Shown in pieces: positions 304-51,977 of a stretch of 64,000 nt of DNA. The stretch's first letter is position 1. Each line of letters begins with the position of its first letter. A model generated the notes under the pieces. It saw only the letters and a list, made by a program, of their open reading frames with translations. It did no database searches and was not told the origin of the DNA. A program made the translations under genes and the position numbers. Source of the stretch: Hormiphora californensis (lineage: Eukaryota; Animalia; Ctenophora); contig CM035353.1 of NCBI GenBank assembly GCA_020137815.1, positions 1,178,001 through 1,242,000 of the forward strand, given 5' to 3'.

Positions 304-3300
304 GAGTGAGGTTGAGGAGGGATTGAAAAGGTTTGGTATTTCAACAAATGAAGATGACATTGATCTGCTTTTTGATATAACTGATAACGATAACGATGGA
401 CTTATTACACAAACAGGTAACAAACACACACACAAACACAAACACAAACACAAACACAAACACAAACACAAACACAAACACAAACACAGGAAAATAGTCG
501 AATGGTTGATTGGTTGAACCAGATAAGACCCCAGCTTTCAGAATTAAGTGCGGGAACTAAGTAAAACTCAACCTCATGGTTTTAACTCAGTATCACGACT
601 TTTTTCCTTCAATAAAAACAACTTAAAACTACACGTATTATATATTGCAATGTCAACGTATTATGTACTGCAATGTAAACTAATTCTTCAACATATCAAC
701 CCAAACTTCAAAAATACCTTTCCCCTCCTTCTGCTCCTCCCTCTCCGTCTCCTTACCCTTGCAATGCTTCCTCCATAACCTAGCTGCGACAGTAAACTTC
801 TTACTGGCCTTTTTACAGTGATCGTTATTAACCCTCCTCCGCAAGCATTCCTCCTGAAACCTTTTCTTCAGACGAGAACAATCACACTCGGACTTTTTAG
901 CCCTCAACTCTGTCTTCATAGCAGACTTTAACTTCTCACATGATGTGTCATCCTTCTCCTTATCAACTGAGCCAAGGGAAGCGGTGACGAGAAGCAGTAG
1001 CAACACAATCCTTGTGTATATTATCATACTCACATCACATCATATCACAGCTAATGTCAATACATCTAGAGAGAGGTAGAAGACAGTTAGAAGACAAATA
1101 TTAGAGAGTAACAAAATGAGAGTCATATTAGTGTACTAGTACAATGTACTTGTACAATGTATTATTGTACTAGTATAACAATGTAACACAGTGTACTAGT
1201 ATAACAATGTAACACAATGTACTGGGCAATGTATTATTGTACTAGTATAACAATGTAACACAGTGTACTAGTATAACAATGTAACACAATGTACTAGTAG
1301 TTAATACCAAGATGATGATACCAACAAATGTATAAGCCCCGCAACTAAGAGTCAATACAGTTTGAACCGGAGCAGCAAGTGATTGTATCGCAATTGTATC
1401 AAAATCAAGGGTACAACATATATACTAGTCCCCAGAAGAAAAGTCTCCAATAATAGTTTCACTTACCCAGGCCACGTACGGCTGCAGTTTCCCCAATCAC
1501 ACACCACAAGGAGGACCACTGAACGATCATATCACTGACCAGTGACCACACTGAGGGAAAGAGTCACAATGGGGGGGGGGGGAAACCTCAGGTTAAGGCC
1601 ACGGCTATTTTCCACTGAGATCTCAGGTCTCCATGCAGCTGACATCCACTCCCTGTTTTAGGAATCACCGAGTACGAGAGATCACGTACTGGGGGAGAGT
1701 CACACACCACGTTGTTCATTGATTACACCATTCCATTATACTGACACCCCTTTTTTGTGTAGAGTTTAAGAACCTATTATTTGATGCTGGACCTCCTGAC
1801 GCTGATGCGAGTTTTAAAGGACAGATTGAGAACGCTGTAAGTAGTACCTAGAATGTAATAGAATGTAAGGAGTAGAATGAATTTGTGTCCGATAGTACAA
1901 ACAAAACCAGATCACCATGTTCAAAAGTTTCTCCTTTTGTGGTATGCACAGTCGGACCCTGATCTACCGGAACCCCGATTTACCGGGAGGATAAACTTCG
2001 GTAATATGGTAGTTCTGGGCTGAACATTTTCGACCGCTTTAAAGCGCTTTAAAGCGTTTGAGAAAGCGCTTTATAGCGCTATAAAGCGCTTTAAAGCGGT
2101 ACCGCTTTAAAGCGCACCGCTTTAAAGCGCTTTTAAAGCGCTAAAAGCGCTTTAAAGCGATTCTTGTAACGATTTAAAGCGCTTTCGAAAGCGCTATAAA
2201 GCGCTTTCGCAAGCGCTTTAAAGCGCTACTGTACGATTTAAAGCGCTTTAAAGCGCTATAAAGCGCTAAAAGCGCTTTAAAGCGCTATAAAGCGTTCTTA
2301 AAAGCGCTTTATAGCGCTTTTTAAAGCGTTTTTAAAGCGCTTTAAAGCGCTTTATTTTTGGATTTTGAACAAAAAAAGCGCTTTAAAGCGGTAGCGCTTT
2401 AAAGCGCTTGCGAAAGCGCTTTCGAAAGCGCTTTAAATCGTTACAAGAATCGCTTTAAAGCGCTTTTAGCGCTTTAAAAAGTTTATCCTTTTGTGGTATG
2501 CACAGTCGGACCCTGATCTACCGGAACCCCGATTTACCGGGAGGATAAACTTCGGTAATATGGTAGTTCTGGGCTGAACATTTTCGACCGCTTTAAAGCG
2601 CTTTAAAGCGTTTGAGAAAGCGCTTTATAGCGCTATAAAGCGCTTTAAAGCGGTACCGCTTTAAAGCGCACCGCTTTAAAGCGCTTTTAAAGCGCTAAAA
2701 GCGCTTTAAAGCGATTCTTGTAACGATTTAAAGCGCTTTCGAAAGCGCTATAAAGCGCTTTCGCAAGCGCTTTAAAGCGCTACTGTACGATTTAAAGCGC
2801 TTTAAAGCGCTATAAAGCGCTAAAAGCGCTTTAAAGCGCTATAAAGCGTTCTTAAAAGCGCTTTATAGCGCTTTTTAAAGCGCTTTTAAAGCGCTTTAAA
2901 GCGCTTTATTTTTGGATTTTGAACAAAAAAAGCGCTTTAAAGCGGTAGCGCTTTAAAGCGCTTTCGAAAGCGCTTTAAATCGAGGAAGTAATTTTGATAT
3001 CTCCTTCTGGTGATCAACACACACACACGCCCTCCGTACAACGGTTATATAGGGGAATCTCACACACACACGGGCAGATCTCGGTCAAGGAGAGATTAAT
3101 TGATTATTCAGAATAAAGAGATCTGAGCAAGAATTAAATAGGGAAGAAAATCGAAAAATACTGGGTTCGACCGGGAATTGAACCAGGGACCTCCAGAGAG
3201 ACGCGCTCGATGCTCTACCACTGAGCTACCGAACCCCTGTACAGATCGCATTTCTTCAACACTATATTCAAGCACATGCCCTTAGATAGACACCATGTGA

Positions 3301-5307
3301 TAGAGGAAGTAATTTTGATATCTCCTTCTGGTGATCAACACACACACACGCCCTCCGTACAACGGTTATATAGGGGAATCTCACACACACACGGGCAGAT
3401 CTCGGTCAAGGAGAGATTAATTGATTATTCAGAATAAAGAGATCTGAGCAAGAATTAAATAGGGAAGAAAATCGAAAAATACTGGGTTCGACCGGGAATT
3501 GAACCAGGGACCTCCAGAGAGACGCGCTCGATGCTCTACCACTGAGCTACCGAACCCCTGTACAGATCGCATTTCTTCAACACTATATTCAAGCACATGC
3601 CCTTAGATAGACACCATGTGATAGAGGAAGTAATTTTGATATCTCCTTCTGGTGATCAACACACACACACGCCCTCCGTACAACGGTTATATAGGGGAAT
3701 CTCACACACACACGGGCAGATCTCGGTCAAGGAGAGATTAATTGATTATTCAGAATAAAGAGATCTGAGCAAGAATTAAATAGGGAAGAAAATCTGGAGG
3801 TCCCTGGTTCAATTCCCGGTCGAACCCAGTATTTTTCGATTTTCTTCCCTATTTAATTCTTGCTCAGATCTCTTTATTCTGAATAATCAATTAATCTCTC
3901 CTTGACCGAGATCTGCCCGTGTGTGTGTGAGATTCCCCTATATAACCGTTGTACGGAGGGCGTGTGTGTGTGTTGATCACCAGAAGGAGATATCAAAATT
4001 ACTTCCTCTATCACATGGTGTCTATCTAAGGGCATGTGCTTGAATATAGTGTTGAAGAAATGCGATCTGTACAGGGGTTCGGTAGCTCAGTGGTAGAGCA
4101 TCGAGCGCGTCTCTCTGGAGGTCCCTGGTTCAATTCCCGGTCGAACCCAGTATTTTTCGATTTTCTTCCCTATTTAATTCTTGCTCAGATCTCTTTATTC
4201 TGAATAATCAATTAATCTCTCCTTGACCGAGATCTGCCCGTGTGTGTGTGAGATTCCCCTATATAACCGTTGTACGGAGGGCGTGTGTGTGTGTTGATCA
4301 CCAGAAGGAGATATCAAAATTACTTCCTCTATCACATGGTGTCTATCTAAGGGCATGTGCTTGAATATAGTGTTGAAGAAATGCGATCTGTACAGGGGTT
4401 CGGTAGCTCAGTGGTAGAGCATCGAGCGCGTCTCTCTGGAGGTCCCTGGTTCAATTCCCGGTCGAACCCAGTATTTTTCGATTTTCTTCCCTATTTAATT
4501 CTTGCTCAGATCTCTTTATTCTGAATAATCAATTAATCTCTCCTTGACCGAGATCTGCCCGTGTGTGTGTGAGATTCCCCTATATAACCGTTGTACGGAG
4601 GGCGTGTGTGTGTGTTGATCACCAGAAGGAGATATCAAAATTACTTCCTCTATCACATGGTGTCTATCTAAGGGCATGTGCTTGAATATAGTGTTGAAGA
4701 AATGCGATCTGTACAGGGGTTCGGTAGCTCAGTGGTAGAGCATCGAGCGCGTCTCTCTGGAGGTCCCTGGTTCAATTCCCGGTCGAACCCAGTATTTTTC
4801 GATTTTCTTCCCTATTTAATTCTTGCTCAGATCGCTTTAAATCGTTACAAGAATCGCTTTAAAGCGCTTTTAGCGCTTTAAAAGCGCTTTAAAGCGGTGC
4901 GCTTTAAAGCGGTACCGCTTTAAAGCGCTTTATAGCGCTATAAAGCGCTTTCTCAAACGCTTTAAAGCGCTTTAAAGCGGTCGAAAATGTTCAGCCCAGA
5001 ACTACCATATTACCTACCATATTACCGGGAGGATAAACCCCGATTTACTGGGAGGATAAACTTCCCCCGATATAGGATTTGGATAGTTTTTGACCCCGAT
5101 CATATACCGGGCAAAACCCTTTCCCCGAGTATCCCGGTAAATCGGGGTCCGACTGCAGTATAACGTCATAAAATGACCAAGGCACATTAATATTATCTCA
5201 TTCCTCTGCAGAGTGCGGCAGTAAACAGCTCTCAAAACTTCACACCCTCCAGAAGACCCGCATCTAACAAATTCATCAGGACAACTTATACTCCTGGAAT
5301 TACCTAG
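304..5307 (+). CDS. EF-hand calcium-binding protein, 3' part (upstream exons outside the window)
   Basis: Phase-consistent GT-AG exons 304-416, 1763-1836 and 5212-5307 (TAG). They read ...EEGLKRFGISTNEDDIDLLFDITDNDNDGLITQTEFKNLLF..., with EF loop DNDNDGLITQTE split across the first intron. The terminal exon recurs at 7022-7117. Confidence 0.75.
680..1027 (-). CDS. Secreted, basic, six-cysteine small protein nested antisense in the EF-hand gene intron
   Basis: ATG at 1027; signal-like MIIYTRIVLLLLLVTASLG; 6 Cys; Lys/Arg-rich; 115 aa. Putative 5'UTR intron 1066-1466 (GTAAGT donor, [18 protein letters not shown]). Confidence 0.7.
   Translation of the reverse strand: MIIYTRIVLLLLLVTASLGSVDKEKDDTSCEKLKSAMKTELRAKKSECDCSRLKKRFQEECLRRRVNNDHCKKASKKFTVAARLWRKHCKGKETEREEQKEGKGIFEVWVDMLKN
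2983..4832. repeat. Inverted multimer of 321-bp tRNA-like units
   Basis: Period 321 (2982/3303/3624). About 2.5 units on minus (2983-3794), then about 3.2 on plus (3795-4832). CGCTTTAAATCG flanks both sides. The plus block recurs at 5620-6645. Confidence 0.9.
4076..4148 (+). ncRNA. tRNA-like Pol III cassette (pseudo-tRNA/SINE head), one of 8 identical full copies
   Basis: Acceptor stem GGTTCGG/TCGAACC; A box TAGCTCAGTGG; B box GGTTCAATTCC; TTTTT just downstream. Anticodon arm is aberrant (18 nt, no U33 or purine 37). Other copies: 3163-3235 and 3484-3556 (-); 4397-4469, 4718-4790, 5889-5961, 6210-6282, 6531-6603 (+). Confidence 0.75.
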
Positions 5308-5619
5308 CATTAGTTACCATGGCAACCAAATGAGTTACCAATTGTCAAAAACTAAAGTTACATAGATGGATGGAAACAAAAACAACGTATGATATATCAG
5401 ATAAATTCCAGCTGGTGTACTGTATTTCAGTGAATTCAGTGGATTAATATAACTTTTGTGTGAAATGCAGAACCCTTCTTTTTTAATGCAAAAGTTTAGT
5501 AAAGTGACAGCTGAAATCTGAATCTGACAGAAAATATTTTAATTGTATTTATCTGTGAATATTTGTTTTAAAACGTGTAAATTACAATTCTTAATGTTTT
5601 CAAAGATTCTAAATTATTT

Positions 5620-7424
5620 GTTCAATTCCCGGTCGAACCCAGTATTTTTCGATTTTCTTCCCTATTTAATTCTTGCTCAGATCTCTTTATTCTGAATAAT
5701 CAATTAATCTCTCCTTGACCGAGATCTGCCCGTGTGTGTGTGAGATTCCCCTATATAACCGTTGTACGGAGGGCGTGTGTGTGTGTTGATCACCAGAAGG
5801 AGATATCAAAATTACTTCCTCTATCACATGGTGTCTATCTAAGGGCATGTGCTTGAATATAGTGTTGAAGAAATGCGATCTGTACAGGGGTTCGGTAGCT
5901 CAGTGGTAGAGCATCGAGCGCGTCTCTCTGGAGGTCCCTGGTTCAATTCCCGGTCGAACCCAGTATTTTTCGATTTTCTTCCCTATTTAATTCTTGCTCA
6001 GATCTCTTTATTCTGAATAATCAATTAATCTCTCCTTGACCGAGATCTGCCCGTGTGTGTGTGAGATTCCCCTATATAACCGTTGTACGGAGGGCGTGTG
6101 TGTGTGTTGATCACCAGAAGGAGATATCAAAATTACTTCCTCTATCACATGGTGTCTATCTAAGGGCATGTGCTTGAATATAGTGTTGAAGAAATGCGAT
6201 CTGTACAGGGGTTCGGTAGCTCAGTGGTAGAGCATCGAGCGCGTCTCTCTGGAGGTCCCTGGTTCAATTCCCGGTCGAACCCAGTATTTTTCGATTTTCT
6301 TCCCTATTTAATTCTTGCTCAGATCTCTTTATTCTGAATAATCAATTAATCTCTCCTTGACCGAGATCTGCCCGTGTGTGTGTGAGATTCCCCTATATAA
6401 CCGTTGTACGGAGGGCGTGTGTGTGTGTTGATCACCAGAAGGAGATATCAAAATTACTTCCTCTATCACATGGTGTCTATCTAAGGGCATGTGCTTGAAT
6501 ATAGTGTTGAAGAAATGCGATCTGTACAGGGGTTCGGTAGCTCAGTGGTAGAGCATCGAGCGCGTCTCTCTGGAGGTCCCTGGTTCAATTCCCGGTCGAA
6601 CCCAGTATTTTTCGATTTTCTTCCCTATTTAATTCTTGCTCAGATCGCTTTAAATCGTTACAAGAATCGCTTTAAAGCGCTTTTAGCGCTTTAAAAGCGC
6701 TTTAAAGCGGTGCGCTTTAAAGCGGTACCGCTTTAAAGCGCTTTATAGCGCTATAAAGCGCTTTCTCAAACGCTTTAAAGCGCTTTAAAGCGGTCGAAAA
6801 TGTTCAGCCCAGAACTACCATATTACCTACCATATTACCGGGAGGATAAACCCCGATTTACCGGGAGGATAAACTTCCCCCGATATAGGATTTGGATAGT
6901 TTTTGACCCCGATTTACCGGGCAAAACCCTTTCCCCGAGTATCCCGGTAAACCGGGGTCCGACTGCAGTATAACGTCATAAAATGACCAAGGCACATTAA
7001 AATCATCTTATTCCTCTGCAGAGTGCGGCAGTCAACAGTTCTCAAAACTTCACACCCTCCAGAAGACCCGCATCTAACAAATTCATCAGGACAACTTATA
7101 CTCCTGGAATTACCTAGCATTAGTTACCATGGCAACCAAGTGAGTTACCAATTGTCAAAAACTAAAGTTACCACAGATGGGATGAAAACAAAAACAACGT
7201 ATGATATATTAGATAAACTCCAGCTGGTGTACTGTATTTCAGTGGATTATATATAACTTTTATGTGAAATGTGCAGAATCTTTCTTTTTTAATGCAAAAG
7301 TTAAGTAAAGTGACAGCTGAAAGTGACTCTGACAGAGAATATTTTAATTGTATTTATCTGTGAATATTTGTTTTAAAACTTGTAAATTACAATTCTTAAT
7401 GTTTTCAAAGATTTTAAATTATTT
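5620..7424 (+). repeat. 1.8-kb tandem duplicate of 3807-5619
   Basis: Offset 1813. The array part is identical; the flanking exon and 3'UTR differ by scattered substitutions and indels. Confidence 0.85.
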
Positions 7425-7484
7425 AAGTTCTATTTAAAACTAAGTTTCTGTTTATTCTTGTTAAAATGTCTTGCTGCAAAGTTA

Positions 7485-10400
7485 TTAATGTATATCCTGC
7501 ATTAGGTTCTTCTTCATACTTTGTAGTTCTTCTCCTCTTTTCAACAGGTTGGGTAGTGAAGCATTGAACTTGAATTTGTTCCCCTTGCTTTTATCCTGGG
7601 TAATATTAGTAATGTTAATTAATAATATAATGTTTAAAAAATGATATAATCAAGTTTAAGTTAGTAATACATACTAACACGGCCGCTTGCAGTCAGAATA
7701 CGGTAATGGAAAACGGAGACTAGTGTCTGACGGTGTATAAGGTCTAAATGAGGCACGGAGCTTTTCTGAATCAGCTTTTCAAGACGAATTCAACGCAACC
7801 GGAATTAGCTTTCTATCTTATCGGGAAGGTTCGGTTCACTCACGCTCATTTTTAGTCATTTTTGCCGCGCGAGCCAATCAGAGGCCAGAATTTCGAAATC
7901 CAGCCCTCTGATTGGCTCGCGCGGCTAAAAATGAAAAAAGTGAACCACACCTTCCCGATAAGATAGAAAGCTAATTCCGGTTGCGTTGGATTCGTCTTGA
8001 AAAGCTGATTCAGAAAAACTCCGTGCCTCATTTGGACCTTATACACCGTCAGACACTAACGGAGACACTGTATGAAGGCGCGCAACCAAGGCCAATCGGC
8101 GCGTTAGTACGTGCTGACAAAAAGTACTTTTAACAGATTGTTGACAAAAGCCCTTGCGCGTTACGCAAATTCCGCGCAGATTACTGTATTTTGTATTACC
8201 GTATTCTGACTGCAAGCAGCACTGTAACATTGATTTTGATGCTGTAATTCAAAAAGGGAAAAACAGTCGTGCTTGAACCTTAGTTCCAGGCTACGACTAT
8301 TGTCCACTGAGACCTGAGATTTTAGGTTTCAGTGACGGCTATTGACTTAAATCTCAGGGAATAGCCGTCACTGAAACCTGAGATCTCAGGTCTCAGTGGA
8401 AAATAGCCGTTGCCTGAAACTCAGGTTCAGGTACGACCAATTTCCCCAAAAGCTGCTAATATTGTAAAGTGCTTGATGAAAAAAGAAGTGATGCAGTTGT
8501 AAAACAACACTTGTGACCCCCCAAAAAGTGCTTGTATCATGGTCAACTCACGGGTTTCAGATTCCTCAGAACAGTCCCAGACTGAATGGCACCCACTAAG
8601 CCATCGATCAGAGTTTCAGTTTCCCGTTTTATGAAGGAGCGCTTTTGTTTTGCTGTCACCTTGTCCGGCAGTGGGGACTCTGCAATGGAAATAAAGGGTT
8701 ACATCAATGCAATTAAAATGTTTGTACAATAACTTAAGTCCTCTATAATAAAATACCCGGCCAGCCAAGTGAGGGCTGTTTGGTTTTCCTTTGATTTAGC
8801 GCGTTGATAAGTAACAATGCCCGGCTTTATAAAGTATTGCTTTCACTGAAATGAAATAAAACAGGCCGATTTTCACACTACTGGTTAATGGTAATTTTTG
8901 AATGAATTTCAACGATTCAGTCGCCATATTTCTTTGTGAATATTTTCAGTCCCCATTATACTAGTAGCAACTAGGTGTGCGAAAAACGAGGGCCATCTGG
9001 CAGAACCGGGTGGGTTTGCTATCACTAGCAAATGCTTGAATCTTGAATCCCTGTGGAGTAAGTACTTTTGGAAAAGGAAAAAGGGGTAGGTGCAGGGATT
9101 CGAGGACGGAGGGGAAGATAAAATGTATATGGGAGAAAAATATTGAAAAATGTATACCTCCCTACGCTATTTAACATACACGTGGTGCTTGTAGCGGAGG
9201 TACGGTAATGACAGTGGTGCTTGTAGTGGAGATACGGTAATACGGTAGTGGTGCTTGTCGCGGAGATACGGTAATAGCGGATACCGTAATGGCGCGGACT
9301 TGCAGCACGTCATAGCGCATTGATTAGCCACGCTTGTGCGTCTTCTTACCGTTTTTCACACCAGAACTGTTTTAGAGGAGTAGAGTGAGAGAGATATAGA
9401 AAAGAATGGAGAGACATCGGGGAGTGAGAGAGATATAGAAAAGAATGGAGAGACATCGGGGAATGAGAGAGATGTAGAAAAGAATGGAGAGACATCGGGG
9501 AGTGAGAGATATAGAAAAGAATAGATAGACATCGGGGAGAAAAAATAGATCATTTGAGAACTCCCCAAGCGGATAGAGATAGGTTAGCCAAGCGCAGAGA
9601 GGTAGGTTAGCCACGCGAGTAAGAGACATGGGGAATACTATTAAAAAGAAAGAGAACACGGAGAGCTAGCTCAAACTTTGCTAGAGGGAGTCAAGGCACG
9701 GCTAATGTCTCGAGGACAAGGACATTTACCCATTTGGGAGAGAAACATAGAAAATATAGAGTGAGAGCTGCATCTAACTTGGCTAACAGATCGCGTGACT
9801 TTATTCTCAACTATCTCGTGACTGTTGCGTTTGACCTGCCAAGAATGAGGTGCTTCTTGATTTTCATATCATTGCTGGCCCTGTCTCCTGCGACAGAAGG
9901 TAAGAACACAATTATTGGCACATAAAGGCAGTCATTAGCTACGGCTAACTAATTGGATTTATTTTAATTCTTAAGGGTGATTATTTAGTAATCTAAAGTA
10001 GTTTGAAAGTTTCAAACTTTTCAACACTACTTTAAACAAATTAATTTGAGCACTGATGAGCGGAATGTTACATTCTGTGAAACATATGTTTGCGTAAATC
10101 TCCGTGTTTCATTTCTACTAATACAGCGCCCGTGACAAGGTTGAGCACTTTCGGTGGCAAGCGCAACTTCATACTATATTTATAATTAAGTATAAAACCC
10201 ACGGCTATTATTATAATCCACTGCTGCGAATAGTAAACGAAAAATAATGATATTTCAGTGTGGAGTCCAGTTGTACGTAAAACTAAGATCCCATTTGATC
10301 TGGAGAGCACCCCTCTTCAAATCAAAACGGACTCTCCTGCTGGGAGTATGGACATGATCTGGGTGAATACATTCACTGCAGATGGCAGTTCCATTGGATG

Positions 10401-13400
10401 GGTGGGGGTGAGGTTCACCTCACCTTTCCAATACATCATCGGCTACTGTACCAGTTCATTGACCTCCCTCCCAGTACAACCACCAGAGGGAGTGGACAAG
10501 ATGTGGACAATTCGAAAGACGGCTACCAACCTTACCATAGAGTGCAACGGGGTGGAGGTACTGAACTACCAGTTCAGTAACAGTAGTGATACTGATAACT
10601 GTGTACCCAAGTGGGGAGGAGATGTAGTGGTGAAAATAGAATTTGACCCCTTCTCGGACAAGGCATCAGACAGCTACCGTGCTGCAGGTAATGAAGGAAT
10701 GATTAACAGTCATCACTATCCTGCCGGCAAGAAGCGCCAGGTGGCGACTGCGACAAACCATAGCCAATCTGACGAGTGACGATGGTCGATGGTGCGCTCA
10801 ACACGTGGCGCTAACTTGGCGCTACAATAACGCTATGAACCCCGATAGCTGTATTATCAGTCGTTTGAAGATTTTACGCGCCCATTATAACTGCGTTGGG
10901 AACAGCCAACTTCATAACGCGCCAAGCTACAAACGTTCATAGTACATATTATATTTCAGTATGGAATCCGGTTATGCATGACACTGACATCCCATTTGAT
11001 CTGGAGAACACCCCTCTTCAAATCAAAACCAACTCACCAACTGGGAGTGGGGAGTGGATCTGGGTGAATACATACACTGCAGATGGGACTGAGATTGGAG
11101 GGGTGGGGGTGCAGTTCACCTCACCTTTCCAATACATCATCGGCTACTGCACCAATCAACTGCAACTCCCAGTGCAACCAGGAGATGAAGTGGACAAGAT
11201 TTGGACAATTGGAAAGAACACCACCTCCCTCAGGATAGAGTGTAATGGGCTGGAGGTTCTAAACTACCAGTTCAGTGACAGTAGTGATACTAACTGTGTA
11301 GAACAGTGGGGAGGAGATGTGGAGAAGATAGAATTTTCCTCCTCCTCTGACACCGCATCAGAGAGCTACCAAGAAGCAGGTAATGAGGGACTAGGGAGTG
11401 ATTAACAGTTATCACTATAATACGCTGACTGAGTAACCCAATACTTATATATAGTCCCTGGAAAATGACTAAGGCGGTTCGTTATGCGCGTTACCGGTAG
11501 TTTCAGGAGCATATCAAGTAGGAAACGCGAGTTACAAGTGATTCCATGCTTCCACTGTGTGCGGCTGAGTTGGTTTTAGATGTTGGGACACCTTAGGCGG
11601 ACCAAATTTGCAAAAATAGCAGGAACAATTGCGCGGTGGGCACTGGGCACCTTGAACCGCCTTAGTCATTTTCCAGGGACTATAATCAATTTTCAACCAC
11701 AATTTGCGCCAGTTGGCGCCAGACCATGGCCAAATTTGGCGATAGTGCGAAAACTTCTATATTTGTATCCCCATCGGATAAGTATCGGATAATTGTTTAT
11801 GAGCCGCATGATAAAAGTTTATTGGGATGATATCTCCTTCCGGCTTGATCAATCAGGGACAAAATGAAATTACGGTGTTTTATTAAACTTAATAAAACAC
11901 CGTAATTTCATTTTGTCCCTGATTGATCAAGCCGGAAGGAGATATCATCCCAACAAACTTGTATCCCCATTGATACTATAATAATGGTGTAATGTTTCAG
12001 CTTGGAGTCCAGTAAAACGTAAAAATGACATTCCATTTGATCTGGAGAGCACACCTCTTCAAATCAAAACAGATTCCAAGAGTCAGGACAGGATCTTGGT
12101 GGAATTATTCACTGCAGATGATAGTTACATTGGATCAGTGAGGGTGAGGTTCACCTCAACTATGAAATACGACATCTTCCCCTGCACCGGATCATCGACC
12201 TCCCTCCCAGTACAACCACAACAGGAAGTGGACAAGATTTGGACAATTAGAAAAAATACCACCACCCTCATTATAGAGTGTAATGGGGTGGAGGTTCTGA
12301 ACTACCAGTTCAATGACAGTAGTAACAATTACTGTGTACCCAGGTGGGGAGGAGATGTAGTGGAGAAGATAGCATTTCACCCCTATGACACCGCATCAGA
12401 CAGCTACCGTGCTGCAGGTAATGAAGAAAGAGTGATTAGCAGTTATCACTACGCTGAGTAATTCAGAGTTGCACTGCTCTATTATACTTATGGTGATGTT
12501 ATGTACAATATTAAATGTATACTGTGGTGATCTCACAAGTGGTATTCAGGTATTAAATTGACTAATCGATATTACATCCACTCTATCCATCAGTGTGCCC
12601 CGGGTTTACTGTGGATGGATCAGTGCAAGGAAGTTGGAACGACACAGATCCAGGACAGACAGTGACCATCAACTGTCAGAAGAAGCATGTTCTAGACGGT
12701 ATCTCTGAGAGGACCTGTAACACTGATGGAGTGCAGTGGGATAGTGAAGTTCCTATCTGCAGGAAAGTTCGTAAGTTTCGATGGGTAATATAATAGGGGT
12801 GATTGGTAATTTTATCCTTTAATTTTACCCGTGCAAAACCACGTATTACTGAAAAAGATGGGGAACTTTTTCAGTGATAGGTTTACTCACTGGAAAATAT
12901 GAAAAGTTGTATTTAGAAAGGGGCGAGCTGGAAATTCGAAATCTCGAGTTTCCGCACTCCAGGGGGGAACGACCAGAGATGAAATTGCATTGTGCATGTC
13001 ATAAAGTTGGTTTGTTGTTTATATGTTATAGTATGCGATGTTTTTATTTTTTGTACTGTACTGTTTTGTGCTGCAGAACTGGACTGAGAAACTAAACCAG
13101 ACTGTGTTCCAAAATTCCGGTAAGCAATGCCACTTGATATACACTCCAAGCCGATTGAGGGAAAACAGTCGTGCCTGAACCTCAGTTTTAGGCCACGGCT
13201 ATTTTCCACTGAGACCTGAGATCTCAGATTTCAGGCTGTTTTCCCCCAATGTACTTTTCTATGGGAGGGAACTCCAGCGGCTGAAGTATACATTTGATGC
13301 CCTACTAGAACAGAGCATTGCCATTGCTTATCTGGCGGACCCAGACCCCGTGTTGACTCGGATTGGTGCCGCTAGATAGGCCATATCTCCACCCACCCCT

Positions 13401-19459: not shown

Positions 19460-22400
19460 TTACGCCCCTAAATTCTCCAGACTCTTCTTCACGTACTCCG
19501 GGTTATATTTATCCAACATTTCTGCCATGCTCAACCTCTCCATATCCTGCCCAAATCCACCACCACCACTAACATCCACACATACCTCACCCTCTCCATC
19601 TCCCACGCAAACTCTCTTATCGCTCTTGCTGCTGTATCCCGATGACCTCCCTGAGCTTCTCAGAGATTTTAGTGAGCGGCTCAGAGAACGGCTGAGTTTG
19701 GATTTTGAGTTCCTGAGAGCGCCCTTGAGAGCATGACCGTTTAGATATCCAGTAGAAGTTTGGCCTGGTTTCTTAGATAGATCATAGTCAAGGGAATTGG
19801 CTCGAGTTAGGTCGTTAAGTTTCTCAAGTTGCCGATTCAGTTCCCCAATGTCGGTCAAGGATCGTGATTTCTTGACCAGTTTCTGATCCGGGTCTAACCG
19901 GTCCAGTTTCTCCAGTAGCGATATCTTGTCCAGTAGGACACTATTTGTAGAGCCACGACGTGAACTCTTTCTACTCTCATCCCCACTTGAGATATAAGCA
20001 ACTCTTGTCGCATCAAACTTATCCTCCTCCTCAAAACCCTCGTCACCATGGTGATGGTTTAACTGTCGTCGAGCAAAGTTGGGGAAACTGTACTTGGGGC
20101 GTTTCTTGAGCATCCTCGTAAAGAAGCCGCCTTTTTTCTTGTGAGATTCCTGGGCCCTTTCCTCTTCTAGTTCATCTGAATCCATTAGGTCCTCTTTGGA
20201 GAGGTGTTGCTTCATAAACTCCATCTCACCGTGGAACTCTGCAACCGAACCAGTCTCACTCCTGTCATCACCATGGTTACCATGTCTGTTACCTTGGTAA
20301 CCATCAGCTAGTGTTTCATCAGCCTGGCTTACCCTCTCCATCTCCCGTTTTATCTTGTACGCGGAATCAAAGTGATCCTTCCAATCATCGTCCAACTTCT
20401 CTTTCGACCCTACGTGATCCCACAATGAGTGATCTCTGTGTTCAATCTTCCTCCTCAGGTCTGGGATCTCGGGTTGTTTTGTCATCAGAGACTCTGCGAT
20501 ACTCCTCTTGAACTTGGTAGATCCATTACGGAGCTGTCGGGCTATAGAACTTGCCAGACCTCCTGAGGATTTAGAGGCGTTGGATCGGTCACTCGCAAAC
20601 AGAGATCCACGGGAGTTGCGTCTACCGAATGATGGTTGCTCCTCTTCTTCCTCTTCTGATGACTCTGAAGAATCTGACGAATCTGAGTACCCGGCAGACT
20701 TCCTAGCGGGTGTTTTCTTCTTCTGGTTTCGTTTAGCTAGGTACTCCTTCACTTTCCTAAGAATGTACTCCTCATCAACCGAACTATCCCCCTCCGAACT
20801 ATCTGAAGAGGAAGAGGAGGAACTAGAGGAATCACTACTACTACTACTGCTGCTATCACTAGATGATGATGTACTATCATGTTGTGGAATAACTCTCCTC
20901 CGAGATTTTCCGTTCCTTGCCCACCAATCATCATCTGAGTGTGCTCCTTCATCAAAACCGAAACTCGGCCTACAGCCCTTCTTCTTTTCACTCATAGACC
21001 TCTTCAACTTGGGACCTGCCTTCCTCAGATCCCCCTTCAACAACTTCTTCTCTCTGATCGCCTCCTCTATCTCCCTCGCCAGCGCCCTCTTCAAATCAGT
21101 TACAGTCGGTTTGGAAATACTCCCACTCTTGCCCAGGATATCCCTTGTGAGCTGCCTTGTGTAATGTTCTATCTCATCATCTGTGTCATCGAACTCTACT
21201 TTCGGAGGGGGAACCTCGTGTAGATTTGGGTAGTAATTACTATCGTCACCAGTTGGATGAACTGCCTCACTCATCCTCCTTAGATTAGGGTACCTTACAT
21301 CCTCTATCCTCTCAGCAGCAGGACTTTCAGCTCGCTTAATAGCATCTGATACCTTCTCTCCCCGCTGTATTACCCCAAAACCAGGGTCAGCTAGAGCGGA
21401 GATATGATCTCCTTTCCTCAGGATCGGTATATCTTGAATACCAAGGTTTTCTTTGAACATTGACACTGTTTCAGAGTCTCCGTCTTTTGGGATAACAATA
21501 GAATGAGGATTATCGGCATCTTTTAGAATTGTATTGATGCTATCTCCTTTCTTTATCGCTGTCTCGTTGTCAGGGAGTCTGTTCACAGCGAACCTGACAG
21601 ATCTGTTGAGGGTAGAGTTCCGTTGCCGTAGCGACCCCCCTCCACCACCATGTCTCATACTACTTCTTTTGTAGCTCCTTCTCAAGGAATCATCTTCATT
21701 TCCAAGTGAGGGGTAAAGACTGACCTGCTCGATTGGGTGTTGGTCCAGTGCGTGTTGTGGAGTTCTCTCCATCTCCATGGTTACAGATGAGCGGATATCC
21801 GGGTTCCGTGCAGGTCTGTCAGTATCGTTCACAGAGAGAGGAGGGGGAGGGGCGGGACGGGTCTTGCCGTGACTGGATGGGGTTGACCCCATTGTTGGAA
21901 GTGGATCAGATGGGTTGCCTCCGCACCCACCTGGCTCACCCCTGGTAACAGGGCACCCTGTTTGGGCCACCTCTGGAACTACAGGGGCTGGTGGTTGTTG
22001 AGGGGGTGGTTGCATGTTGTACCCTCCAAAAGGTGGTGCACCAGCCATTCCTGGGTAGGGGAAGAAGGGTGGGTACCTGTTACCCGGGTACATCATTCCA
22101 GGGTACATCATGCCCGGGTACATGTGCGGGTACATGCCAGGACCTGCCTGGGGCATGCCAGGACCTGCCCCGGGCATGCCAGGACCTGCCTGGGGCATGC
22201 CACCCTGGTATGGATCATATTGTTGCTGCTGCATTTGAGGCTGAGGCTGGGCAGCAGGAGCAGGTTCTGACTCAGGTACAAACTCTGGGTAAATCTCGTT
22301 CCCAGTACCAGAGGCAGATGTTCCAGAGAGGGGGTTTCTATAACGACCAAACATTGCTTTAGCCTTCTCGAATTCTATATCAGGCACTGTATCACGACCT

Positions 22401-25400
22401 GGGGGCTGCCACTCCTTTCTCAATTGTGTGAGATCAGAAATACCTCCCGGAATCTCGCCTCCATTCGCCTGAAGAGGTCCAGCATTTGCATTTGGGTACA
22501 ATTTGTTCTTTTTGATGGACCTCACGTGCTCCTTTATCCTTCCGATTGTGTCACGTAGTGGTGACTTCCTTCTCGTTCCCTCACCCTCACTTTCACTCTC
22601 CTCTCTCTCCCTGATAAACTTGTCCCTCGCATCATGGTCTCCCTGGGCAACGGGTTTAGCAGTTCTCGGGGTAACAAGATTCTCATCGTTTGGGATGGGT
22701 CTGGAGAATCTGTGGTTGTACCACTCTTTGGTGTAGGGTAGCCCATCCAGTTCGCAGTCACCGCACCCTGCCCACTCCCTCTCCTCATCCCAAAACTCGT
22801 GTGCTTTTACTGAAATTAGGGAGAGAGGGTGTTACCATGGTGACAAGGGGGAGTCAAGTTGTAAGTGTCACTAAGTTGTAAGTCACTAAGTTGTAAGTCA
22901 CTAAGTTGTAAGTCACTAAGTTGTAAGTCACTACGTTGTAAGTCACTAAGTTGTAAGTCACTAAGTTGTAAGTCACTAAGTTGTAAGTCACTAAGTTGTA
23001 AGTGTCACTACGTTGTAAGTCACTACGTTGTAAGTGTCACTACGTTGTAAGTCACTACGTTGTAAGTCACTAAGTTGTAAGTCACTACGTTGTAAGTCAC
23101 TAAGTTGTAAGTCACTAAGTTGTAAGTCACTACGTTGTAAGTCACTAAGTTGTAAGTCACTACGTTGTAAGTCACTAAGTTGTAAGTCACTAAGTTGTAA
23201 GTCACTAAGTTGTGAGTCACTAAGTTGTAAGTCACTAAGTTGTAAGTCACTAAGTTGTAAATCACTAAGTTGGTAGTCACTAAGTTGTAAGTCACTACGT
23301 TGTAAATCACTAAGTTGTAAGTCACTACGTTGTAAGTTACTAAGTTGTAAGTCACGTACTGGGATATTTCTGTCGGATTATTACAAACTCCTTCACTTGA
23401 GATCCAATCACTGTCATAGTCATATCTAGTAGTAGCGTCTTGTTGTTCCGACTGTAATGTGAGAGTTATTCGATTAGTAACCATGGTTACAGTTGTTGGT
23501 CAGACTGATTTCAAATGAAATGTATGTCAGTATACGTGCTCATCAAGAGTACGATTTAAATCTTACGGTTGCTTTTTTCTCCTCCCTTCAGGTCTAGGTT
23601 ATACCAAACGCGGAAGGTAACTTTGTCCACGTGTGACACTCTACTAACCTGACTACTGAGTGCATCATTTTGTCCAGTTTGTATTTGTTGCACAGGTAGA
23701 TGAACATTTCCTTTATTGTAATGTGGGGACTCATCTCCATTACCACCTTGTTACCGACTGGCAGGTGACAGACAACCTTGATCGCCTAAAAGGGGGAGCG
23801 GTGACAAATTTAAATTTCCGAAAGAAAACGAAGCTTTTTATAGAAACTAAAGACTAAAGATTCTTACCGGTGGAATGGGTGGGCCCTTGTTGTGCACAAC
23901 CCATATTTCCTTAATCCCCAGATTACCAATGCTGCTGCTAACCGTGAAGTGTGGTGGTAGCGGGTTATACCTGAAAATATATAGGTGTTATGAAGCACTG
24001 AAATCTTGTCAGCACTATTCGATTTTATCAAAGCCCCGGAAGATTTGATATACATTTTGTAACAAGATAAAGACAGAACTCCAAAGTGAGCCATGTCAAT
24101 TTTTTTGTACCTGTTAGGTCTGATTTCGATCCAAGCGTTAGGGTTATCTACTTTAGGACTCTTTCTTATCGCTGCCAGGAGTTGACCCATAGTTGTCCGC
24201 TTATCCACCTTAACATAACATTTCCTCTCTTTGCCCCTCTGATCCGAGGGTAAGTGCACCTGCAAATTCATATTAGCTGCTGGATAGCTATTGCCTTAAA
24301 TTTCAGGGAATAGCCGTCACTGAAACCTGAGACTTCAGGTCTCAGTGGAAAATAGCCGTGCACTTGACCTGAGGTTCAGGCACGACTGTTTTCCCTCCAT
24401 TGACAGGTTTATACCTTGAGTTTGACTGCCTCCTCTGGTAGTCCCATCCTGGCCTCGTGGTCGGTGGGAAGATCAATTAGTTCTCTACCAGGTGCCTTCC
24501 TGATTATATCCCTTATATCGTCAAAAAACTGGAGGGAAGGTTTATTTATATTTCCTGCCATGTGCAGTTCATAATGCAGTTCAAAATGTTTAACTAGTAA
24601 GTAATAATGTCCAAAGAAGTTTTACTAACTCAGTTAGTAACTGTGTACATGGTTCACTATTCTACTAACTGCATTTACTGTGTACTAACCTGGTCGGCCA
24701 TCATCTTGGTTTTGAATCTGATTCCCATTGTCTCTTCGTACTGGTTGTCAACCTGATAGTACAGAGGAGGGTTAGGGTGGAGGTAGTAATGAAATGGCCG
24801 TTTTGGTTACGAAGTCACCCCTTTTGGCTTTTATTGCATACTCCGTCACCAATACTAACAGAGGGTGGAGGTGACATTGGCCAACATTGGCCTATAAACA
24901 CTTCAGCACCCCCTCAACATGTCATATAACGTACCATTTTAACAAATGTTTCCTGTCGAGACACCTTCAGGGAAGCCAACACTCTCATCTCTATCTTCAA
25001 CTTCTCATCTGGGGTAGGAGGAATTAGAAACTAATTGACATACCTACACAGTATAATCGCAGTTCCTCTAAAGACCTTGGCCCCGGTTCAGAGTTGTTGA
25101 GTAACTCAACAGGTTCGGAGAGAACAGTCAGTGAGACAAAAGCCCCTCCCTGCGCCCCTCCACCCCGCCATTCCCTCCCCGCCCCTCCACCCGCGGCCGG
25201 GTTTGAACAAAACAATTCACTAACCTTGATATGCCCATACTCGTTATAGATTCTCCTTCACCCCCACCCCGGAGCGCCCCTCCCCCTCCCTACTACACTA
25301 ACCTTGGTATGCCCACACTTGGTAGACCCCCTCCATCCCCTCCCTCCACTAACCTTGATAAGCCCACACTCGGTAGACCCCCCTCCACACCACCCCACCA

Positions 25401-29836: not shown

Positions 29837-31814
29837 TATTGATTCAATATAGATTGGCTGGTTGTACATGGTGTAGAACTACACTTGTTTTGTGTTGACT
29901 GCCTCATCTTTCAAACTCTACTATTATTTTTCTGATCTCTCTCTCTCTCTCTCTCTCTCCCTATTCATGTTGTCTCCCTCCATCTCTCCTTATTCAAACT
30001 GTCTCCCTCCATCTCTCCCTCTCTGATCTCTCTCTCTCTCTCTCCTTATTCATACTGTCTCCCTCCAGGCTCTATCTCTCCCTATTCATATTGTCCCCCT
30101 CAGCCCTCCCTCTCTGATCCCTCTCTCTCTCTCTCTCTCTCCTTATTCATACTGTCTCCCTCCAAGCTCCATCCATCTCTATATCCTTCTCTATATCCTT
30201 CTCTCTTTCATTACTTGATCGAGTTGAATGTTGATACATAGCCGAGTCTGCAGACAATGTACACTATTATACACACACCCCCTCCCCCCACTTGGCAAAC
30301 ATTGTAACTTGGTTCCTCCCTTTTTTGTGTAGGCTGGCCACTTTGAACACCGTCAGTTTCCAGCTTTGAATTCTTTGTGTACATTTAGTTCTAAATACTA
30401 ATCATTTAGATAACATATTTACCTAGGTAACCTTGGTAACATAAACTCTTTCCTAATTCCTAGCAAGTCACTTCAAGACCTATAACACAGCTAAATGGAG
30501 CGTGGAACTGTTTTATGTGGAAGTATCTGTGGAATTGTGGGGATCATTGTCCTAGTTCTGATTTTCGTATTCCTGAGCGCCTTCAGCTACATTTGATTTT
30601 ATGAAGGAGCAATACGAACTTGTGGAAGCTTTGATCTGAGGACAATCAGAATTGTGTGGCGGAGGGTTGATTTGAACTCTCGAGGATGGGTAGACAGAAA
30701 TTAATGTCACAGAACAACGTGGCAGTGTATGTGCATGTTTTATCCATTTTAAATTGCCGGGTCAAGGACATGATAATTACATCTATACAAATTGGAACTC
30801 AGCAGCTTGTGCTACATTTTATAGATCTTATATTCAGCAGATATAATTCAGAAGTTACACGCCTATATAGCACTCTAGAATCCAGCTGTGTTGTTACCAA
30901 GATCCATGGATCTTGTGCACAGTTATAACACTATAGTGTATCCAGTCTCCAAACACCATCTAACTGACCATGACATACTAGAAAGAGTTTTTTAATTACA
31001 GAACTTATTGACGTCATATATTTTGTATGCTAAGACATTTCAATTATTATACTTTATCCCCCCTATATAAGATTTGTGTTCAGAATGAATTTCTTCAAAG
31101 AATTCCTCACATGTCTATTTTGAGCCCTCTTGAATATGTGTGGAGGAAGCGTTCAGACCCATTTTCAGACTGCATTTCTCTTTGCCTTGTTCGACAAAAC
31201 AAATTTCTCTTACCATAATTACAACATTAACATACATGACCATAACATAATTAGTTTTATTTTAGTGCTACAATCAACGCCACTAAAAGTTAGAAGAGTG
31301 TGGTAGAGAAGGAGCGAGAGAGAGGAGAAATCAGAAACGGTTATAATTTCTAAAAATTCAGTTCTAATGTTTTGGACGGTGACTGTCCTTGCTATTCTTG
31401 CCAGAAATTTTTATCAGAGTCAGCGAAAGTCAGAAAAGAGCCCTGGAAATTGAGTCAGATAATTCCACGAATTGTGTGCTTTTATGGAATTCTAAGAATC
31501 TCTGACTCCATTATCTGGCAGTTCTACTACGGATCCCTGATAGGTAGAACTGCCATGGAGCTCCATGGCAGTTCTACCTATCAGGGATCCGTAGTCCGCA
31601 GTTGTTTCTTGACTTCGTTGACATGGGTATTGGGTTCTAACCTCCCAGCTAGACACACAATTTGTTTCCGTGGAAGGCCAGAAACTGTATCCCCCCTGAC
31701 ACTACAACTATAATAACTCTCTCTTTCTCTCCATCTGTGACAGTCTGTGTGCGGCACCGTAATTGGCACTATGTTGCACCCCTGGATCCACTAATTTTCT
31801 GTGGGACTGCCGCT

Positions 31815-31816
<2 letters not shown>

Positions 31817-31854
<38 letters not shown>

Positions 31855-33076
31855 AAAAAAAAAAAAAAAAAAAAAGGGGGGGGAAAGGGGGAGGAGGGGA
31901 AAAAGAAGAGAGGAGAGAGAGAGAGAAGAGAGAGAGAGACGGGGAAAAAAATTTCCAAAAATTTTTTTTTTTTGGGGAAAACCCCCTTTTTTAAAAAAAA
32001 AATTTTTAAAAAGGGGGGGGGGAAAAAGGGGGGGGGGGAAAAAAAAAAAGGTTTTTTAAAAAAAAAAAAACCAAAAAACCCCTTTTTTTTTGGGGGGGGT
32101 TTTTTTTTTTTTAAAATTTTTTTTAAATTTTTAAACCCAAAATCCCAAAAATTTTTAAAAAGGGGAAAAATTTTTTTCCCCCCGGAAACCAAATTTTTTT
32201 GGGGAAAACCCCCCCCCAAAAAAAACCAAAAAAATTTTTTTTTTCCTTTTTTTTGGGGGGGCCAATTTTGTTTTCCCCCTTTTTTTTTTTTTGGGGGGGT
32301 TTTCCCCCCCAAAAAAAAAAAGGGGGGGGAAAGGGGAAAAAAAAACCCCCCCCAAAAAAAAAAAAAAGGGGGGGGGGGGGGGGGGGGAAAGGGGGGGGGT
32401 TTAAAGGGGGGGAAAAAAGGGGGGGGGGTTAAAGGGGAGGGGAGGAAAAAAGAGAGAGGGGGAGAGGAAAAGGGGGGGAAAAAAAAAGGGGGGGGGGAGG
32501 GGTGGGGGAAAAGGGGGGGGGGGGGGGGGGGAAAAAGAGAAAGGGGGAGAGTGGGGGAGGAAAAGGGGGAGAGGGGGAAAAGGGGGGGGGGGAAAAAAAA
32601 AAAAGGGGAGGGGAAAGGGGGGGGGGGGAAAAAAGGGGGGGGGGGGAGGGGGGGGAAAAGGGGGGGAAGGGGGGGGGGAAAAAGGGGGAAAAGGGGGGGG
32701 GGGAGGGGGGGGGGGGGGGGGGGGGGGGAAAAGGGGGGGGGGGGGGAGGAAAGGGGGGGGGGGGAGGGGGGGGGGGAAAAAGGGGGGGGGGAAAGGGGGG
32801 GGGGGGAAGGGGGAGAGAAAGGAAAAGGGGAAAAAAAAGGGGGGGGGGGGGTTTTTAAAAAAAAAAAAAAAAAAGGGGGAAAAAAAAGGGAAAAATTTTT
32901 TTTTTTTTAAAGGGGAAGGGGGGGAAAAAGGGGGGGGGAAAGGGGGGGGGAAGGGGGGGGGGGGGAAAAAAAAAAAAGGGGGGGGAGGGAAAAGGGGGGG
33001 GGGGGGGGGGGGGGAGGGGGGGGGGGAAAAAAAAAAATTTTTAAAAAAAATTTTTTTAAAGGGGGGGGGTTTTTGG

Positions 33077-33107
<31 letters not shown>

Positions 33108-33937
33108 TTTTAAAAAAAAAATTTTTTTGGGGGGGGGAAAAAAAACGGGGGCCAAAACCCCGGGGGGGGGGGGGGGGAAAAAAATTTTAAGGGGTTTTAA
33201 AAAATTTTTAAAAAAAAAAAAAAGGGGGGAAAAAAAAAAAAAAAGGGGGAAAATTTTTTAAAAATTTAAAAGGGGGGGGGGGGGGGGAAAAGGGGGGGGA
33301 AAAAAAAAAAAAGGGAAAATTTTGGGGGGGGGGGGGGGGGAAAAGGGGGGGGGAAAATTTTTTAAAAAAAGGGGAAAAAAAAAAAAAACCCCCCCGGAAT
33401 TTAAAAAAAAAGGGCGGGGTTTTGGGGGGGTGGAAAAATAAAAAAAAATTTTCCCCAAAAAAGGGGGGGGAAAAAAAAGGGGGGGGTTTTTGGGGGGGGG
33501 CCCCCCCGGGTTTTTTTAAAAAAAAATTCCCTTTTTTGTTTTTTTGGGGGGGGTTTTTTTAAAAAAGGGGGGAAAAAGGAAAAAAGGGGGAAAAAAAAAA
33601 AAGAAAATTGGGGGGAAAAACCCAAAAAAAAAAAAAAATTTTTTTTTTTTTTTTTTTTAAAAATTTTTTCCCCCCCCAAAAAAAGGAAAAAAAAAAATTT
33701 TTAAAAACCCCTTTTAAAAAATTTTTTTTAAAAAAAAAGGGGCCCCCAAAAATTTTGTTTTTTTAAAATTTTTTTTTTTTTTTTTTAAAAATTTTAAAAA
33801 AAACCCCCCCTTTTCCCCCCTGTTTCCCCCTTTTTTAAAAAAAGGGGAAAAAAATTTTTTATTCCCCAAAACCCTTTTTTCCCCCTTTTCCCCAAAAAAA
33901 AAAAAATTTTTTTTTTTTTTGGGTTTAAACCCCCCGG
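31817..33937. other. Homopolymer-run degraded sequence (probable sequencing/assembly artefact)
   Basis: Almost entirely runs of G, A, T and C, starting at a poly-G tract. The ORFs here are G/K/F/P-only. Confidence 0.9.
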
Positions 33938-43444: not shown

Positions 43445-44068
43445 CAATGTATATAATATGTTAATGTATATTGTACATAATGTATATATAATGTATAAAA
43501 TTAGAGAGCTAAATTACAGAGATCGATATTACTTTAAACAAAGATCTGTCAGGATTGACCTGCAGTACTGATTGTCTCGCGCAGACGTATATTACAACTA
43601 CAGTTAACTGTGGACAAGGTGAAGGGAAGTAATTTTGATATCTCCTTCTGTACAACAAGGTGTTTGGAATATTTGCAGGAGTCAAAAGAGTTGTGAAACT
43701 ATATCAAATGAATGGAGACACATTTGACTAGCTATATTTTGCCATCCCCCATAGGAATTTCGCGCGGAGGAACCTGCATTCTCCAGCCTTTTCGGCACGC
43801 GAATGAAGGTGATTATCCAAGAAAAAACTAGCTAAATTCTTGGAGAAAACAGGCATTCACGCAGCAGACCGCGCGCGCGATTGATGTTATAGTGAGTGCT
43901 AACGGTGTTTTCTCGATTCAGCAGGGTATTTGGGAGTCAATGCGCGCTACTGACATACACCATTTGTCGAGTCAGATCAGTGCAGCAGTGCAGCTGATTC
44001 AGTTGTTTCTCGAAATAACCTGGCTCACTTAAAATGATCGTTCTGAGGAATACATTCATTTTCACAAC

Positions 44069-44290: not shown

Positions 44291-44589
44291 ACAACGTCAA
44301 GAAATAATAACGCATTTATATTGTTGTTCATAATAAATCTAGTAAAATCCACAAATAATAAAAAAGTAAAATCTCCCTGTCTCTTTCAATTTCATCTCCA
44401 TACTTGAAGCAATTAAATGATTTATCGGACTATAAAATTCTTGCAGCTATAATATATAATAGCTGAATAAATAAAAAGAAAAAAAAACCCCAAAAAAAAA
44501 AAAAACCCCCCCCCCCCCCTTTTTCTCTAAATTACTTTTTGTGGGATTTTTTTCCACTTTATGAAACCTTTTTTGGGGAGGGACCCCTC

Positions 44590-45888: not shown

Positions 45889-45927
<39 letters not shown>

Positions 45928-48380: not shown

Positions 48381-51977
<3,597 letters not shown>

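Follow-up and report, generated by a model that had tools for sequence, protein, structure and literature searches.

Background

Insertions of Penelope-like elements (PLEs) contain partial tandems, an adjoining inverted and 5'-truncated copy and, optionally, a one-sided tail of 30-40 bp (PMC8557442). Naiads, which lack canonical hammerheads, are found in the ctenophores Beroe and Mnemiopsis, and non-autonomous PLEs of Chlamys form multicopy head-to-tail insertions (PMC8557442; the activity of one of them, MRC1, is treated in PMC9940879). With a purified PLE protein, both strands of the target are cut and extended, and synthesis starts inside a stem-loop without homology to the target (PMC11167929). 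Here we report on a block of tandem 321-bp units, each with a tRNA-like module, which lies between direct repeats at positions 2971-4844 of a 64,000-nucleotide stretch of the ctenophore Hormiphora californensis (GenBank assembly GCA_020137815.1, contig CM035353.1, positions 1,178,001 to 1,242,000 of the forward strand; this whole stretch is "the window" below), and which is probably a young non-autonomous passenger of a PLE.

The block resembles the Chlamys PLEs, MRC1 and the Naiads in being non-coding and multicopy, head-to-tail, with an inverted 5'-truncated copy and no canonical hammerhead (PMC8557442, PMC9940879); unlike them, its unit carries a tRNA-like RNA polymerase III (Pol III) module within a flanking duplex, and the parts of these papers drawn on mention no tRNA-derived passenger. 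The head-to-tail multicopy structure is present (2.53 + 3.24 units), as is the inverted 5'-truncated copy adjoining the 5' end, and the sequence pattern is that of a start at a fixed internal point of a stem-loop, independent of target homology. By analogy, the element may work like a non-autonomous PLE, to which class we liken it rather than assign it.

Other described systems come close. The schistosome repeats SM-alpha and Sj-alpha have tandem units of ~335 bp, a Pol III promoter, multimeric transcripts and a need for tandems in propagation (PMC6765202, PMC8490949), but SM-alpha carries an active hammerhead, whereas the unit described here has none, has a run of five T (T5) after its tRNA-like part, and ends in a PLE-type stem-loop. 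Metazoan retrozymes of the non-LTR (long terminal repeat) kind combine tandem monomers of 150-450 bp with long target duplications and low GC, as seen here too; theirs is, however, a type I hammerhead with circular RNA (PMC7229834). Since a hammerhead or any other catalogued ribozyme was searched for in the unit and is absent, we rejected membership among retrozymes or SM-alpha. PolIII/TAN of newt, OAX/satellite I of Xenopus and Rana/polIII are tRNA-related tandem units of 250-360 nt without a matching conventional short interspersed element (SINE), yet they are described as tandem repeats (PMC10702118), whereas here a whole array, with an inversion, sits within one target duplication.

Anatomy of the insertion

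Units are numbered with window position 4075 as origin. Between the direct repeats lie 1,850 bp, or 5.76 units of 321 bp, arranged as follows.

2971-2982 (+): left copy of the target duplication, near-palindromic around TTTAAA, single copy in the empty references
2982-3794 (-): left block, unit 85 to 255, with its 3' end at the recurrent end of the family
3793-3794 (no strand): inversion junction with 2-nt microhomology, absent among the contig joints listed
3793-4833 (+): right block, unit 40 to 117, with its 3' end at the sole 6-of-7 microhomology
4833-4844 (+): right copy of the target duplication

The left block (read from 3794 to 2982) comprises 813 nt and the right block (3793 to 4833) 1041 nt, and neither shows a mismatch to the periodic unit, in agreement with the about 5.7 identical units claimed in the preliminary description. 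The 12-bp direct repeat reported there, CGCTTTAAATCG, is found at 2971-2982 and 4833-4844; one base per end is common to unit and repeat, so that the target duplication amounts to 10-12 bp. Across the window this word is met 8 times, 4 on each strand, because the host of the insertion is an internally repeated palindrome. It is present once in each of two empty references, namely a tandem copy of the host (2429, the uninterrupted site already noticed near that position) and the mirror arm of the same host.

In both blocks the tRNA-sense strand is copied outward and the 3' ends point outward. The inversion had been recognised correctly, except that its junction lies at 3793/3794 and not at 3794/3795; there the 5' ends of the blocks overlap by the two nucleotides of microhomology. 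As the units at the two outer junctions have opposite orientations, an inversion in between is forced if both junctions are real. The right end bears out the microhomology proposed for it: of the 321 unit positions just one, unit 117, agrees with the target end in 6 or more of 7 letters. At the left end 3 of 7 letters match, which points to a putative homology-independent start of the left-block 3' end. The statement that neither end is a unit boundary does not hold, as the left end (unit 253-255) is the recurrent end of the family. In line with the reported lack of poly(A), no A-rich or simple-repeat 3' tail is present at 2982, nor at 43622, where a solo copy ends, and T5 and T4 runs are internal. 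The insert is confirmed at the level of the assembly, in which alone its junctions are seen.

The 321-bp unit

The A box (unit 9-19), the B box (53-63) and the T5 run (79-83) described as intact were all located, and a T4 run follows at unit 87-90.

4076-4148 (+): tRNA-like module with A and B boxes and a degenerate anticodon arm; further copies at 3163-3235 (-), 3484-3556 (-), 4397-4469 and 4718-4790
4153-4157 (+): T5 run in the 3' arm of the flanking duplex, where it may serve as a Pol III terminator
4038-4184 (+): predicted RNA rod with the tRNA-like module at its tip, unit 285-319 (4038-4072) pairing with unit 76-110 (4150-4184)
4260-4266 (+): TATATAA, flanked on both sides by (GT)n runs and ~30 nt upstream of the end motif; from its sequence a candidate second promoter

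ARAGORN calls Thr(CGT) in 8 places, and the Rfam tRNA model scores 39.7 bits against a gathering threshold of 29. That tRNA finders label these units Thr(CGT) genes calls for caution in annotation. The anticodon stem has 3 Watson-Crick pairs, one G-U and one mismatch, the T stem also has one mismatch, and the loop CGCGTCT has neither U33 nor a purine at 37, both of which are found in a canonical tRNA anticodon loop. The anticodon arm is thus degenerate, though not absent, and we rejected a functional tRNA gene array on these grounds. The A and B boxes are tRNA-related, as in a tRNA-derived SINE, but the missing tail and the internal T5 exclude a conventional tailed SINE. Tailless tRNA retrocopies are reportedly the subject of one published study.

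The 45 nt on each side of the tRNA-like part pair at -26.1 kcal/mol, versus -13.1 +/- 2.8 for shuffled sequences (0 of 1000 as good), and versus only -14.5 kcal/mol on the opposite strand. The register is gapless, with 30 Watson-Crick and 6 G-U pairs in 61 columns, six other registers giving 13-20; between unit 76-110 and unit 285-319, 24 pairs reach a probability of at least 0.68 whether the monomer starts at unit 1 or at unit 256. The tRNA-like part is therefore predicted, by folding models, to top a 35-column duplex that is stable on the sense strand only. No ribozyme was detected in the unit: Rfam searched to E=10 yields tRNA-type matches only, and the CUGANGA and hepatitis delta virus (HDV) L3/P3 motifs are absent from both strands, so that the earlier failure to find a hammerhead is upheld.

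A recurrent end and its motif

Unit 253-255 is an end that recurs in this insert, in the solo copy at 43.6 kb, in contig pieces and at loose contig ends. In run X7, 2 of the 8 listed pieces stop at 4648 (unit 253-255) inside long contigs, and loose ends at 2982 were seen in 3 contigs of X1 and 1 of X5. Dispersed contigs suggested another recurrent end, at unit 116-119, which we discounted because one consensus of loose ends there looks like a diverged continuation of the unit.

4299-4341 (+): end motif, unit 225-267, with a 5-bp stem, a GAAGGA x 3-nt loop, a GATA:TATC stem and a 16-nt loop
43614-43662 (-): solo copy, unit 228-253 exact (26 nt, 43625-43650) plus 3 nt, with 8-bp direct repeats at 43655-43662 and 43614-43621
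11763-11970 (no strand): sister element, a 184-bp palindromic insertion (11775-11958) with a perfect 12-bp duplication, sharing the end motif

The recurrent end sits in the 16-nt loop of the motif, the 3' half of which lies beyond the end, and the motif is predicted from its sequence to be a recognition and start site for a reverse transcriptase. The 8-bp repeats of the solo copy have a chance of 2.5% locally and 10% window-wide, and its 3 extra letters fit variants listed in the sequencing-run comparisons.

The sister palindrome, whose 12-bp duplication has a local chance of 0.8%, likewise has its 3' ends outward, and one arm is 42 nt longer, forming a one-sided tail. It shares unit 220-242 with a score above all 100 shuffles, and its short end lies 11 nt past the shared core, which corresponds to unit 253. 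The long arm and unit 225-267 adopt one common structure with a loop of 16-17 nt, in which 3 of the 5 lower-stem pairs differ on both sides in a compensatory manner. When the window was scanned with a descriptor of the motif, the only sites returned were the 8 complete copies of the unit, the long arm of the sister and 1 loose match; 28 metagenome loci yielded 2 loose matches. The sister is likely a second passenger of the enzyme that serves the 321-bp unit. We rejected the reading of the motif as the terminus of a MITE (miniature inverted-repeat transposable element) or DNA transposon, the sister arms being unequal and the 3' half of the motif lying beyond the end.

By eye and without a score, the end/start join of the Beroe Naiad reads CACC, 6 nt, GATA, a 19-nt loop with the annotated end, TATC and GGTG, while its 3' part is similar to the sequences on either side of the tRNA module; the same layout was not seen, also by eye, in the 29 other Naiad end/start pairs listed.

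The family in sequencing runs

Contigs of runs X1, X4, X5 and X7 were compared on 4512-5660 and those of X1, X5, X22 and X18 on 2945-3302; the listed pieces were 24 of 1916 and 32 of 10159, and the listed joints 3 (2945-3302) and 15 of 42 (4512-5660). No copy number was derived from contig depth summed along the unit. Of the 22 listed runs, 20 contain part of window 2900-5700; X1-X4 possibly stem from the source sample, and X12-X17, X19 and X20, which share few words with this part, are not counted as evidence. Two samples of organism A and one of organism B cover the unit deeply. Units joined head to tail are plentiful, with depths of 4026 in X1 and 1920 in X5 as against 96-490 for contigs that look like single loci, and diverged unit pieces of 70-110 nt are embedded in long unrelated contigs. 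The family is polymorphic, yet the window units, which carry minority bases (for example at 4667 and 4785), are identical to one another; the window-type base T4667 makes up about 1076 of 145015 depth in X1 contigs. The variant table has 39 rows, 16 of which reach 4% in X1 or X5; 13 of these sites fall in unit 111-202 (92 nt), 3 in the tRNA, none in the 53 nt of unit 203-255 (Fisher p 0.002) and none in the 35 nt of unit 76-110, the 3' arm of the duplex (p 0.02), a distribution that we count in favour of the passenger reading given below.

A pattern scan found no other unit copies in viral contigs or prokaryote genomes, and none of the 28 metagenome loci, which contain a 19-mer, matches the unit beyond 27 nt. 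A small repeat at three of these loci (L004:2349-2527, L011:272-461, L026:4727-4905) resembles unit 225-248 at 23 of 24 nt, has no stem-loop and is probably unrelated.

The host element and its neighbourhood

2503-5155 (no strand): host foldback with long inverted arms, measuring 794 bp in its empty form, at high depth in all four DNA runs compared
2429-2440 (+): empty site in a tandem copy of the left part of the host (1920-2478)
5620-7434 (+): second copy of 3807-5627, including a third array at 5620-6646 (unit 54 to 117), with the same right junction and a diverged flank

We take the host to be Tc1/mariner-like, from its CAGT termini and TA-starting flanks. The copies 3807-5627 and 5620-7434 are identical for 1,242 bp from their start; over the 571 bp that follow they differ by 25 substitutions and 7 gap events. 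In run X4 the depths of the two flank versions (29.3 + 19.2) sum to that of the shared stretch (47.5), as those of two alleles would; in X1 they do not (101.7 + 37.9, against 255.9). Probably 5620-7434 is the other allele, placed in tandem by the assembly, a true duplication being the alternative. The two local duplications, 5620-7434 with a period of 1,813 bp and 1920-2478 with a period of 554 bp, have microhomology-like joins (at 5620 and 2474), and both are possibly haplotypes that the assembly joined in tandem.

Origin of the insertion

We think it fairly probable that the block is a young non-autonomous, tRNA-containing PLE passenger, possibly dependent on a Naiad, that was copied from a multimeric or circular RNA with both target strands serving as primers. 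The insert, the solo copy and the sister palindrome together fit the features of PLEs, from which we infer an enzyme of PLE type. The preliminary description had already pointed to target-primed reverse transcription with a Penelope lead; this fits every junction, and the shared end motif and the PLE signatures of the sister strengthen it. Its second proposal, a Pol III retroposon moving as concatemers, stands in part. Bases 256-321 and 1-39 could not be made from minimal arms, hence the template spanned at least one unit join, but the T5 and T4 after the tRNA argue against multimers made by Pol III.

The following course of events can be envisaged. A 321-nt non-coding element would rely on a reverse transcriptase/endonuclease of Penelope-like, possibly Naiad, type that another part of the genome supplies. 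Its template RNA would be longer than one unit, either a read-through multimer or a circle, and would carry the end motif (unit 225-267). The enzyme would nick both strands of the AT-rich palindromic target, 10-12 nt apart; the top-strand end would start cDNA in the loop of the motif (unit 253-255) without target homology, while the bottom-strand end, annealed to unit 117 with its unique 6-of-7 match, would likewise be extended on the sense strand as template. The two cDNAs would extend over 2.5 and 3.2 units and then be joined via the 2-nt microhomology; the number of units at insertion we likewise infer. A copy that ends in the loop would lack the 3' half of the motif, and the existence of arrays may be explained by the fact that only tandem copies would keep the motif complete and so stay mobile.

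Several observations weigh against this view. No partner reverse transcriptase was found in 257 of the 288 open reading frames (ORFs) of the window, the 31 left out being array duplicates, frames overlapping the ORF at 19.5-22.8 kb and one G-rich frame. The ends of this insert are 138 nt apart, which is not a 30-40-nt tail, even if the sister's is 42 nt. The folding energy of the whole unit, linear or circular, is no better than that of shuffles (z about 0), and with T5 and T4 after the tRNA, Pol III would stop by default at about 85 nt. Judged by eye, the end of the Mnemiopsis Naiad does not have the Beroe layout, and the unit lacks the TGGTGG..CCCCG motif with which many Naiads begin or nearly begin; nor does the supplement with Naiad, Chlamys and Hydra sequences (PMC8557442) contain the exact 13-nt core. 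The covariation in the end motif rests on two sequences, and the segments of the unit used for the variant count were delimited after the data had been seen. The RNA evidence is weak: the DNase-treated metatranscriptome X18 has 9 contigs at depth 3-8, one of which (249 nt, depth 8) crosses T5 and a unit join, with DNA carry-over possible, and X22 has no unit contigs, which is no proof of absence. Finally, none of the contigs listed for X1, X4, X5 and X7 bridges 2982, 3794 or 4833, although contigs drop rare variants, and the inversion joint is missing from the 3 joints of one comparison (2945-3302) and the 15 of 42 listed in the other (4512-5660).

A variant of this scheme, which we consider doubtful, is a retrozyme without a ribozyme. 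The tRNA-like module would be a processing mark and not only a promoter; RNase P would cut at the tRNA 5' end, the flanking duplex would keep the monomer ends within 2-3 nt of each other for ligation, and the resulting 321-nt circle would be copied round and round by a Naiad-type enzyme from both target strands. This would explain why units are identical within one insertion despite a polymorphic family.

Explanations that do without a PLE enzyme have to be weighed against the passenger reading. It is unlikely that a LINE (long interspersed element) enzyme copied a tRNA-derived SINE multimer, with L1-type twin priming causing the inversion. Twin-primed L1 inversions do have outward 3' ends and microhomology at the internal primer and at the inversion (PMC2912911), as here, where the blocks overlap by ~32 nt modulo 321, and in the bivalve Scapharca broughtonii tRNA-derived multimers, palindromic forms included, occur within one target-site duplication (TSD), as TSD-(SINE)n-TSD (PMC11481361). 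Those, however, are LINE-tailed SINEs, and L1 relies on poly(A) priming, whereas our insert has a multimeric non-coding template, no A-rich or simple-repeat tail, an internal end and PLE-type signatures. The recurrent end inside a stem-loop, with the 3' half beyond it, points to internal initiation; the sister is a palindrome with a tail; and inversion is rare for SINEs mobilised in trans (PMC2912911). A purely DNA-level event is rather unlikely as well. Here a break in the cruciform-prone foldback would have been repaired by template switching onto a tandem array or an extrachromosomal DNA circle, with no RNA step. The host is indeed a long palindrome with two nearby duplications whose joins (2474, 5620) look like microhomology, and donors exist, given the abundance of tandem joins in X1 and X5 (depth 4026 and 1920); but such repair sits poorly with a clean 10-12-bp duplication, the copying of the same (sense) strand at both ends, a left end at a recurrent structured site without homology, and the same end in the solo copy and the sister element.

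The remaining alternatives seem weaker still. Were the inverted block an artefact of assembly or library, a chimera through the palindrome or a switch between haplotypes, one would understand the absence of its junctions from the contigs listed; moreover, a near-perfect palindrome of 1.7 kb poses difficulties in sequencing, the window is garbled in G-rich stretches at 32-34 kb, and 5620-7434 looks like a second allele in tandem. We hold this to be quite improbable, as the opposite orientation at two duplication-anchored outer junctions forces an inversion if both are real, an artefact would not pick the recurrent end plus the best microhomology, and the window-type base T4667 is found in X1 contigs. 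Very improbable, in our opinion, is the expansion in place, by slippage or unequal exchange, of a short, roughly dimeric insertion that never moved as a long concatemer. Identical units and an unstable neighbourhood would permit it, and unequal recombination has been proposed for SINE arrays (PMC11481361), but one unit join or more must already have been present in the template, and both arms of a very young insert would need separate expansion.

No description of the family, or of a tRNA-containing PLE passenger, was found in the open-licence literature, Repbase and Dfam lying outside the search; a ctenophore family entry may exist there. Calling this an undescribed class was nevertheless an overstatement, since published precedents include non-autonomous PLE multimers without a ribozyme (Chlamys, MRC1), the Pol III multimers of SM-alpha and TSD-(SINE)n-TSD arrays. 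If the passenger reading is true, tRNA-derived passengers are carried by Penelope-like enzymes as well as by LINEs, and this without a hammerhead; the 43-nt end motif, with its compensatory pairs in two unrelated small elements, would offer a minimal template signal, open to testing, for reverse transcriptases of a class that is mechanistically little understood; and a route from retroposon to tRNA-type satellite would be possible. If the circle were true, the motif common to the two elements would count as the first cis signal to be defined for animal Naiad-type enzymes.

Other features of the window

Positions 10008-10050 match 43 of 44 letters of the H. californensis spliced leader (PMC8527503), which makes a pleurobrachiid comb jelly the most likely host. 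In two copies, at 10008-10082 (+) and near 29793 (-), a hammerhead core (CUGAUGA...GAAA) follows the spliced-leader exon without a gap. The element at 10009-10082 has no significant similarity to the unit and so is not its evident partner; a resemblance over 10 nt of the unit's minus strand to the spliced leader was dropped. Further hammerhead-like cores lie at 27389 (+), 42161 (+) and 55305 (-), the last two belonging to one repeat family, and more palindromic elements, at 7721-8058 and 8250-8447, show no significant similarity to the unit.

Garbled homopolymer-rich sequence at 31800-33800 and 44470-46100 resembles unpolished assembly. Three tandem exons (10237-10779, 10869-11405, 11985-12461) encode related repeats of 150-180 aa without a Pfam match and are followed by a Sushi-like exon at 12566-12790. 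An open frame of 1,123 aa at 19460-22831 (-) has many low-complexity segments and no Pfam match, and a 304-aa frame between microsatellites at 50435-51346 (-), with a weak match to DUF1258 (E 3.6e-4), is perhaps a transposase remnant. At 39478-42899 (+), exons for Kazal, Ig, VWD and C8 domains suggest a mucin/VWF-like extracellular protein.

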